A program made the translations under genes and the position numbers. Of a DNA stretch of 64,000 nucleotides, positions 36,044 through 36,727 are shown piece by piece (the stretch's first letter is position 1; each line of letters begins with the position of its first letter). Location of the stretch: NCBI GenBank assembly GCA_964016885.1, contig CAXHJY010001741.1, forward strand, positions 62,001 to 126,000, in the 5' to 3' direction. Under the pieces are notes generated by a model. It did no database searches. It was not told the origin of the DNA and was given only the letters and a program-made list of their open reading frames with translations. Origin of the DNA: Eledone cirrhosa (lineage: Eukaryota).

Positions 36044-36727
36044 AAATGTAAGTATGTATGTATACGTACATACATATATGTATACAGACGTACAGTAGTA
36101 TGTATATATATACATACAGGCACACATATATATATGCACGTATCAGTTTACCGAACATTTATTATAACTACTGTACGTCTGTATACATATATGTATGTAC
36201 GTATACATACATACTTACATTTAAGTAAGTGCCGTACTAAGAGTGAGAAATGAAATTTCGTTTCATTCTATTCCATTTATCGTTTTCGGTGCGCCTGGAC
36301 GACTGAACTCACTCGATATGTAAATTAGGCTGCTCAGCCGTTAATTTTCATAAGGAAAGTATATACTTTCGGACGTTCAACCATCTGGCAGAAAGGTATA
36401 GGGTGCTGACGATAGCTAATAAGCTTGAAACTAGTACATCGTTCCTGTGTCAGTGTTGAACAAAAAGATGACGTGGTTGCCTAAACACTGTACGGCGTAA
36501 TTCAGGCTGTTTGTTTGTTTACAAACGAACAAACCGAGCATTATAATAAATGTTCGGTAAACTGATACGTGCATATATATATATATGTGTGCCTGTATGT
36601 ATATATATACATACTACTGTACGTCTGTATACATATATGTATGTACGTATACATACATACTTACATTTAAGTAAGTGCCGTACTAAGAGTGAGAAATGAA
36701 ATTTCGTTTCATTCTATTCCATTTATA
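36044..36727 (+). mobile_element. HHR-bearing element: inverted 5' piece plus 1.25 tandem copies of a 446-bp monomer
   Basis: Direct repeat at 36171 and 36617. Segment 36044-36166 is the reverse complement of about 36541-36669. (TA)n lies on both sides. Confidence 0.75.
36402..36440 (+). ncRNA. Minimal type I hammerhead ribozyme motif
   Basis: ggtg-CTGACGA-t agct aata agct t-GAAA-ctag-TA-catc. Palindromic stem III ACTAGT; GUA triplet. Confidence 0.75.

Follow-up and report, generated by a model that had tools for sequence, protein, structure and literature searches.

A two-armed insertion of a 446-bp hammerhead ribozyme repeat in (TA)n, a probable copy of a PLE-mobilised non-LTR retrozyme

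The 64-kb window (the whole stretch of DNA that was analysed) contains, between runs of (TA)n, a non-coding insertion that consists of two arms of unequal length (Table 1). The forward arm comprises 1.26 units of a 446-bp repeat (36167-36726, 560 bp), and its first 114 bp recur without a mismatch at its far end (36167-36280 and 36613-36726, 114/114 identical, period 446); both positions by which a preliminary description of this DNA had marked a direct repeat of that period (36171 and 36617) fall inside this segment. The inverted arm, previously placed at 36044-36166, measures 125 bp (36043-36167, minus strand) and is the reverse complement of 36541-36669, with all 125 aligned letters identical and a sole gap of 4 nt where a TA run is shorter in the inverted arm. 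It is thus wholly contained in the forward arm and represents the same haplotype. The arms are joined head-to-head at 36167 with an overlap of 1 nt (A), and their outer ends are 57 nt out of phase, the stretch 36670-36726 being present on the forward arm only. As had been described, (TA)n is found at both outer ends; the element and the target overlap by 2-3 nt, and the right flank begins with a short (TA)n, which some 25 other bases separate from a long (TA)n. A candidate for a decayed second tail in the right flank (36742-36758) is not claimed here: 363 of the 25,590 window stretches (1.4%) score equally well.

Table 1. Features of the insertion and its flanks, in positions of the 64-kb window
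Feature	Position	Strand	Remark
Left target: (CA)n then short (TA)n	36029-36044		last TA common to inverted arm
Inverted arm	36043-36167	-	outer end = proximal end site (phase 36669/36223); no tail, no hammerhead
Head-to-head arm junction	36167-36167		1-nt overlap (A)
Forward arm	36167-36726	+	560 bp, 1.26 units, no ORF
114-bp repeated segment, copy 1	36167-36280	+	
Unit-to-unit junction	36280-36281	+	36280 also = phase where many family copies end in (AT)n
Complete 446-bp unit	36281-36726	+	36.8% GC
Type I hammerhead	36400-36442	+	predicted cut after A36436
Long TA-rich hairpin	36563-36654	+	predicted fold
114-bp repeated segment, copy 2	36613-36726	+	
57-bp one-sided extension ('tail')	36670-36726	+	forward arm outer end; absent from inverted arm
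Right target: (TA)n	36724-36736		TAT 36724-36726 common to element end

The 446-bp unit, read circularly, contains no ORF, the longest stop-free stretches being 50 codons on the plus strand and 64 on the minus strand, and a Pfam scan of 69 out of 74 selected ORFs of the window found no reverse transcriptase (RT) or endonuclease domain of a Penelope-like element (PLE). Folded as a circle, the unit has a predicted energy of -133.4 kcal/mol (z -6.5; none of 100 shuffled sequences is equally stable); the TA-rich hairpin contributes to this stability, and the predicted circle leaves the hammerhead folded open. Of the two inner ends, the one of the forward arm (phase 36613) lies inside the TA-rich hairpin, and the one of the inverted arm (36541) in the predicted hairpin immediately preceding it.

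The forward arm carries the one hammerhead of this insertion, at the very position reported before (36402-36440), and the inverted arm has none. In this copy, a 4-bp stem I (36402-36405/36437-36440) is followed by the core CUGACGA (36406-36412), a U.U apposition (36413/36426), a 4-bp stem II (36414-36417/36422-36425), GAAA (36427-36430), a helix III made of the palindrome ACUAGU (36430-36435), and the GUA triplet (36434-36436). The Rfam model HH9 aligned to exactly 36402-36440, though with 10.8 bits and an E-value of 4.3 in the search of a 101-base stretch, which is not significant; across 35900-36900, hammerhead families were absent at E-values up to 10, and no Rfam family reached its gathering score anywhere in the window. 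The miRNA-like Rfam matches near the locus, all below the gathering score, are due to the palindrome and the TA content. A type I descriptor, composed after the candidate had been seen, matches seven times in the window (this motif, four in a 311-bp element described below and two others) compared to zero matches in 30 dinucleotide-shuffled windows. On paper, then, the hammerhead of this copy is weak, given its 4-bp stem I, the U.U at the base of stem II and the Rfam E-value of 4.3. In metazoan type I hammerheads, the canonical helix I has 6 bp (PMC4209133); the axolotl HHR_Amex2 provides a precedent for U.U at the base of stem II (PMC7229834); and, among predicted Xenopus dimers that have been tested, 8 of 9 are reported to show no cleavage (bioRxiv 10.64898/2026.07.22.740005).

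The 446-bp unit belongs to a family that is represented in public sequencing runs. Among the 22 runs listed by the run search, three from one sample contain about 0.6 of the query words, and three are raw RAD runs with the same species label, whereas none is an RNA run, which says nothing about expression; we compared two sets of raw RAD reads (X20 and X22, 150 nt) and two sets of contigs (X2 and X4), the source species of which may differ from that of the window. With the unique stretch 36224-36450 as the reference for family counts, family members make up 57,070 of the 12,467,656 reads of X20 and 44,279 of the 12,647,150 reads of X22, mostly 90-99% alike, as well as 6,182 of the 17,142,217 contigs of X2 and 57 of the 762,587 contigs of X4. 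RAD read depth is not taken as copy number; nevertheless, by these counts the family is clearly abundant and diverged. Reads at least 99% alike to the present copy number 152 of 58,611 (X20, 36281-36726), the latter count including microsatellite reads at 36566-36610 and being less clean than that on 36224-36450. Run X5 was rejected as a carrier of the family, with matches on the TA-rich part only (4 of 30 bins), and searches for exact 28-nt matches in metagenome, viral and prokaryote collections gave zero each. On the ribozyme strand, A/G variable places outnumber C/T ones (37 vs 21; 36281-36622, X20; p about 0.04, post hoc); a trace of RNA editing is a possible cause of this excess that we do not claim.

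Variation among the family reads is unevenly distributed over the hammerhead. None of the 24 places in the core, stem II and helix III is variable in at least 8% of the reads, compared to 34 of the 203 places elsewhere in 36224-36450 (Fisher p 0.016), the hammerhead N7 and loop 2, which do vary, being counted among the 203. Position 36401, a G in this copy, is C in 96% of the X20 reads and there pairs with G36441, yielding in the family a 6-bp stem I that starts from 36400/36442; the G at 36401 shortens stem I in the present copy. The changes G36403>T and T36439>G occur at matching frequencies in the two read directions of X20 (0.048/0.050 and 0.540/0.535), which suggests a swap of G.U to U.G, as judged from matched frequencies in unphased reads, and the other changes in stem I preserve pairing as well: G36403>A gives A-U, and A at 36399 pairs with U36443. 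Collectively, this pattern points to apparent purifying selection on the hammerhead across the 446-bp family.

The reads also bear on which of the boundaries of this insertion are shared by the family. Depth is continuous over the unit-to-unit junction 36280|36281 (4,993 then 5,649 in X20), three diverged X2 contigs with 11-16 other letters span it with at least 31 letters per side, and there is no loose end before 36281 among the loose ends listed. Judging from these data, the junction is common to diverged family copies rather than private to this one, and head-to-tail repetition is a family trait. The same phase is followed by (AT)n in 69 X2 and 3 X4 contigs, and a variant tail likewise in 53 and 2 contigs, from which the distal outer end of the family appears to be fixed at 36280 (= 36726). 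The inner inversion points, in turn, seem to vary among family copies in two other individuals: among the 15 joints listed (38 in all), 11 connect 36224-36232 to the opposite strand at ten different places, each in both X20 and X22, and the short sides of the joints end at the AATT site 36254-36257, which fits the head-to-head geometry. The sides of these joints are 21-37 letters long with few starts, and each joint may represent one locus. The loose ends listed correspond to unit variants, microsatellite, mixed AT-rich sequence or AATT restriction sites, with no recognisable constant ORF-like entry among them (a further 851 and 526 rows exist). The piles of loose ends behind 36257-36259 and 36326 and before 36343, as well as the joints 36253-36326 and 36253-36343, lie at AATT sites, and we read them as RAD ligation chimeras. 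The preliminary description had set attachment of the copies to a PLE ORF, or a want of tandem structure, against its own reading; no attached ORF appears in the listed read evidence.

There are no substitutions among the 425 redundant bp of the two arms, and this copy departs from about 95% or more of the family reads at four places in 342 bp. With an origin of these four differences after the insertion, the arms would be expected to differ at about five places (P 0.007). Because the arms are free of substitutions while the copy differs from most family reads, the insertion is likely young and derived from a single source; alternatively, the four differences may reflect the species gap between the organism of the runs and that of the window, and the identity of the arms may reflect gene conversion between them.

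The same window contains a 311-bp hammerhead array (51520-53014), with an inverted arm of 445 bp (1.4 units), a forward arm of 1,051 bp (3.4 units) and four hammerheads; its outer ends are 35 nt apart, the tail is on the inverted arm, and the arms overlap by 1 nt at their junction. The two insertions, the architectures of which had earlier been noticed to match, share two head-to-head arms, outer ends that differ in phase, a (TA)n target and a GUA hammerhead with a palindromic helix III. Their units are unrelated in sequence, as also stated before: the best blastn match is 21 nt long, TA-rich and has an E-value of 0.057, and little is common to the two beyond the hammerhead core. The Rfam E-value is 0.023 for the 311-bp motif vs 4.3 for the 446-bp motif. 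The distal ends of the two units (36709-36726, and 51520-51537 on the minus strand) have a CATT-TATTCCA-like stretch in common. This likeness is weak, being reached by 0.4-6.5% of 3,000 random position pairs, depending on window length, and ranking joint third against 225 other stretches that precede (TA)n.

Several other elements were observed in the window. A near-perfect 662-bp head-to-head palindrome lies between two (TA)n runs at 12492-13197 and is extended by 44 bp at its right end but not at its left; this PLE footprint contains no hammerhead by regular expression and has no Pfam match. A palindrome of about 950 bp beside (TA)n (24083-25039), with some 146 extra bases on the left and no Pfam match, is probably another PLE-type inverted insertion. 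A hammerhead-like motif with a long stem II and GUA at 4868 (4863-4921) resembles PLE-type hammerheads, and a degenerate second hammerhead core at 5054 (5054-5124) lies inside a hairpin (4969-5115). The two remaining matches of the type I descriptor (39270 and 40006, plus strand) are associated with no obvious repeats. A Pif1 helicase is encoded in two frames on the minus strand (42021-43870; E-values 7e-24 and 3e-31), which we take to be a likely Helitron remnant, and a Tc1/mariner-like transposase fragment (HTH_Tnp_Tc3_2, E-value 3e-4, below the cut-off) lies on the plus strand at 14327-14761. A non-coding element of roughly 610 bp occurs in three copies that are 95-97% alike, each in (CATA)n and two of them adjacent (48913-49533, 58385-59000 and 59175-59790). 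Finally, two related short elements, flanked by (TA)n, end in a GC-rich perfect or near-perfect hairpin (35338-35643 and 47036-47216), one of them 400 bp to the left of the 446-bp insertion.

At the level of sequence, the 446-bp family has the features by which metazoan non-LTR retrozymes are recognised. As in the retrozymes described from coral, mussel and axolotl (PMC7229834) and in a vertebrate survey (bioRxiv 10.64898/2026.07.22.740005), the unit is non-coding, lies in the range of 150-450 bp and has a GC content below 50%; it carries one type I hammerhead with a short palindromic helix III and is present in high copy number (PMC7229834). The U.U at the base of stem II is shared with the axolotl HHR_Amex2, and the predicted circle is strongly self-paired, as is that of published retrozymes (PMC7229834). 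This likeness is one of features of the unit. Unlike active retrozymes, the present copy comprises 1.26 units with one ribozyme, and the published retrozyme accounts, so far as their accessible parts go, describe neither inverted arms nor fixed internal ends (PMC7229834, bioRxiv 10.64898/2026.07.22.740005). A search of titles and abstract openings, with the subscription literature mostly outside its coverage, returned no description of retrozyme insertions with two arms and fixed ends, and the words hammerhead, retrozyme and ribozyme are absent from the main text of an Octopus vulgaris repeat annotation (PMC13282606), a genome that may not be that of the window.

These arms and ends are familiar from endonuclease-positive PLEs (Penelope/Poseidon, Neptune and Naiad), in which a partial tandem, an inverted 5'-truncated copy, a head-to-head junction and a one-sided tail have been described (PMC8557442, PMC3846280, PMC11167929, PMC4209133), along with insertion in (TA)n without a discernible duplication and a type I hammerhead upstream of the end sites. 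The preliminary description had called the insertion retrozyme-like; an inverted piece with a partial tandem in (TA)n is the published layout for ordinary PLE insertions and is not special to retrozymes (PMC8557442, PMC3846280). In contrast to these PLEs, the 446-bp unit has no RT or GIY-YIG ORF; its tail is 57 bp long, compared to the 30-40 bp quoted for PLEs; the end sites follow the cut site by 233 and 290 nt, compared to about 85-92 nt in the anole Poseidon (derived from positions given in PMC11167929); and the hammerhead has canonical 6-bp and 4-bp helices as opposed to the long stem II of PLE min-HHRs. The non-autonomous PLEs of Chlamys, such as MRC1, are similar in being short and non-coding, with pLTRs and head-to-tail multimers in microsatellites, and differ in being algal, mostly devoid of hammerheads in the available account, and endowed with a 3' end that resembles those of their autonomous partners (PMC8557442).

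Considering these features together, it appears highly probable that the family is a PLE-mobilised non-LTR retrozyme, and, if so, the circle has a somewhat better than even chance of having been the template; for the complete reading, that the insertion is a non-autonomous non-LTR retrozyme copy that was mobilised in trans by a PLE and copied from an RNA circle, we consider the chances to be about even. By analogy with the coral, mussel and axolotl retrozymes, tandem source copies would be transcribed, cut after GUA by hammerheads that act in pairs via the palindromic ACUAGU helix III, and ligated into 446-nt circles. A PLE endonuclease would then nick (TA)n, and reverse transcription, primed by both DNA ends, would start inside the RNA at one site 290 nt and another 233 nt past the hammerhead cut site, with 57 nt between the two; these two positions are the observed ends of the arms, and the enzyme and the two primings are what we infer from them. 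One cDNA would extend for 560 nt, passing the cut site and covering 114 nt for a second time, and the other for 125 nt, which are the observed lengths of the arms, a circular template being our inference from them. Finally, the two cDNA ends would be joined, and the head-to-head join over a 1-nt overlap is seen in the DNA. The individual steps have precedents in print: a partial tandem with an adjacent inverted 5'-truncated copy, a one-sided tail and a (TA)n target make up the PLE footprint (PMC8557442, PMC3846280); in vitro, the protein of the anole Poseidon both cuts and extends the two DNA strands, and the PLE tail is described as the stretch between two internal RT start sites on the RNA (PMC11167929); and mobilisation of retrozymes by PLEs, with circles explaining more-than-unit copies, has already been proposed (PMC4209133, PMC7229834, PMC7761336).

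A cut linear monomer would give 290 nt from the distal site and the arm is 560 nt long; therefore, the template continued past the cut site. To that extent, the earlier suggestion of a more-than-unit-length copy of a circular or tandem RNA is borne out, with an arm that crosses the cut site and a unit junction that is common to diverged copies. As to the kind of template, the DNA product would be identical whether the RT had followed a circle or an uncut multimer, or had jumped seamlessly from one cut monomer to the next. The circRNA junction reads at GUA that had been proposed as a check cannot discriminate, because ligation recreates a sequence that is already continuous at 36436|36437. Three points lead us to prefer the circle, namely the conservation of the ribozyme, the predicted fold of the unit, which resembles that of published retrozyme circles, and the accumulation of circles in coral, mussel and axolotl; these circles are described as strongly self-paired, with the ribozyme open (PMC7229834). 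The circle is thus the likely template, on a case that is not strong. In the anole Poseidon, the single PLE studied in vitro, hammerhead cleavage is dispensable and uncut RNA is the main substrate (PMC11167929), and non-autonomous Chlamys elements form head-to-tail multimers even though most Chlamys elements are described as lacking hammerheads (PMC8557442); by analogy, the independence of Poseidon from cleavage and the multimers of hammerhead-poor elements both speak against the circle. With its single hammerhead, the present copy has no means of releasing RNA of unit length, and it is probably a dead end. Active copies have been defined by at least two consecutive ribozyme-bearing units (Li et al. 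2026), compared to the one hammerhead here, and this insertion is a derivative copy of the family and not an active retrozyme locus.

The alternatives differ in how much of this reading they replace. The same PLE-mobilised family could have been copied without a circle, from an uncut multimeric or read-through transcript or from cut monomers joined by template jumps of the RT, and we regard this as a serious possibility, albeit not a probable one: the RT of the anole Poseidon works predominantly on uncut RNA (PMC11167929), multimers are formed by non-autonomous Chlamys elements that have no hammerhead (PMC8557442), a source with G at 36401, and hence a shortened stem I, still got copied, and for an arm of 1.26 units a dimer is enough. 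Against such templates stand the apparent purifying selection on the family hammerhead, the folding of the unit like published retrozyme circles, with the ribozyme open (PMC7229834), and the 311-bp neighbour, in which both arms are longer than one unit and identical throughout. Compatible with either template, and concerned with the inverted arm rather than with the class of the element, is a single priming, whereby the 560-nt cDNA would fold back or jump onto itself at 36541, copy 125 nt and be resolved 57 nt short of its start. Self-priming with endonuclease resolution has been proposed for PLE palindromes and tails (PMC3846280, PMC8557442), and the inverted arm indeed corresponds in full to a part of the forward arm, haplotype included; we nonetheless consider this route rather doubtful. 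In the 311-bp neighbour, it is the arm without the tail that is the longer one (1,051 bp vs 445 bp for the tailed arm); this longer arm is therefore not a simple fold-back copy, which argues against folding back as a general route. Furthermore, extension of both strands by a PLE protein, starting from internal sites of the RNA, is described in vitro (PMC11167929).

A truncated autonomous PLE, in which the 114-bp repeat would be a one-off partial tandem that results from stalling and restart of the RT and the element would continue into an ORF, is improbable. A partial tandem with an inverted 5' copy is the usual PLE layout (PMC8557442), Xenopus retrozymes are reported to resemble the pLTRs of autonomous PLEs (bioRxiv 10.64898/2026.07.22.740005), and a minority ORF-linked form is possible, the loose-end evidence consisting of the rows listed, with 851 and 526 more; a junction produced by a one-off stall, however, would be private, whereas 36280|36281 is common to many diverged copies, none of the loose ends listed is recognisable as a constant ORF entry, and the unit itself has no ORF. 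More improbable still is a duplication and inversion at the DNA level in a microsatellite-rich region, or an assembly artefact, combined with a chance hammerhead-like motif. The repeated segment is partly TA-rich and the Rfam support is not significant, but this explanation is largely refuted by a multi-copy family in independent runs, with an invariant core and pair-keeping changes in the stem, by the fixed end in (AT)n, by inversion joints in two individuals and by the zero descriptor matches in 30 shuffled windows.

Within the preferred reading, that of a PLE-mobilised retrozyme copied from a circle, a more specific scenario can be offered tentatively. The locus may be the DNA record of a PLE RT that started at two fixed sites on one ribozyme-made circle and read through the ligated cut site; the RT would probably have been a dimer that held both ends of the (TA)n break, and the 446-bp and 311-bp families would have converged on a CATT-TATTCCA-like start signal and would thereby parasitise the same enzyme.

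The 446-bp element adds one more member to a known kind of element, and a short copy with a single ribozyme cannot settle the question of the template. Mobilisation of animal retrozymes by PLEs via circles has been proposed from co-occurrence and pLTR homology (PMC7229834, PMC4209133, bioRxiv 10.64898/2026.07.22.740005); insertion footprints like that of the 446-bp copy provide sequence-level support for this proposal, and the unit is a small substrate on which purified PLE protein could be tried in vitro. The particular contribution of the 446-bp family is its age: unlike near-identical young arrays, its copies have diverged enough to reveal selection on the ribozyme. If the proposed scenario is correct, the selection that acts on the hammerhead in such a diverged family would imply that the copying cycle includes cleavage and circularisation.
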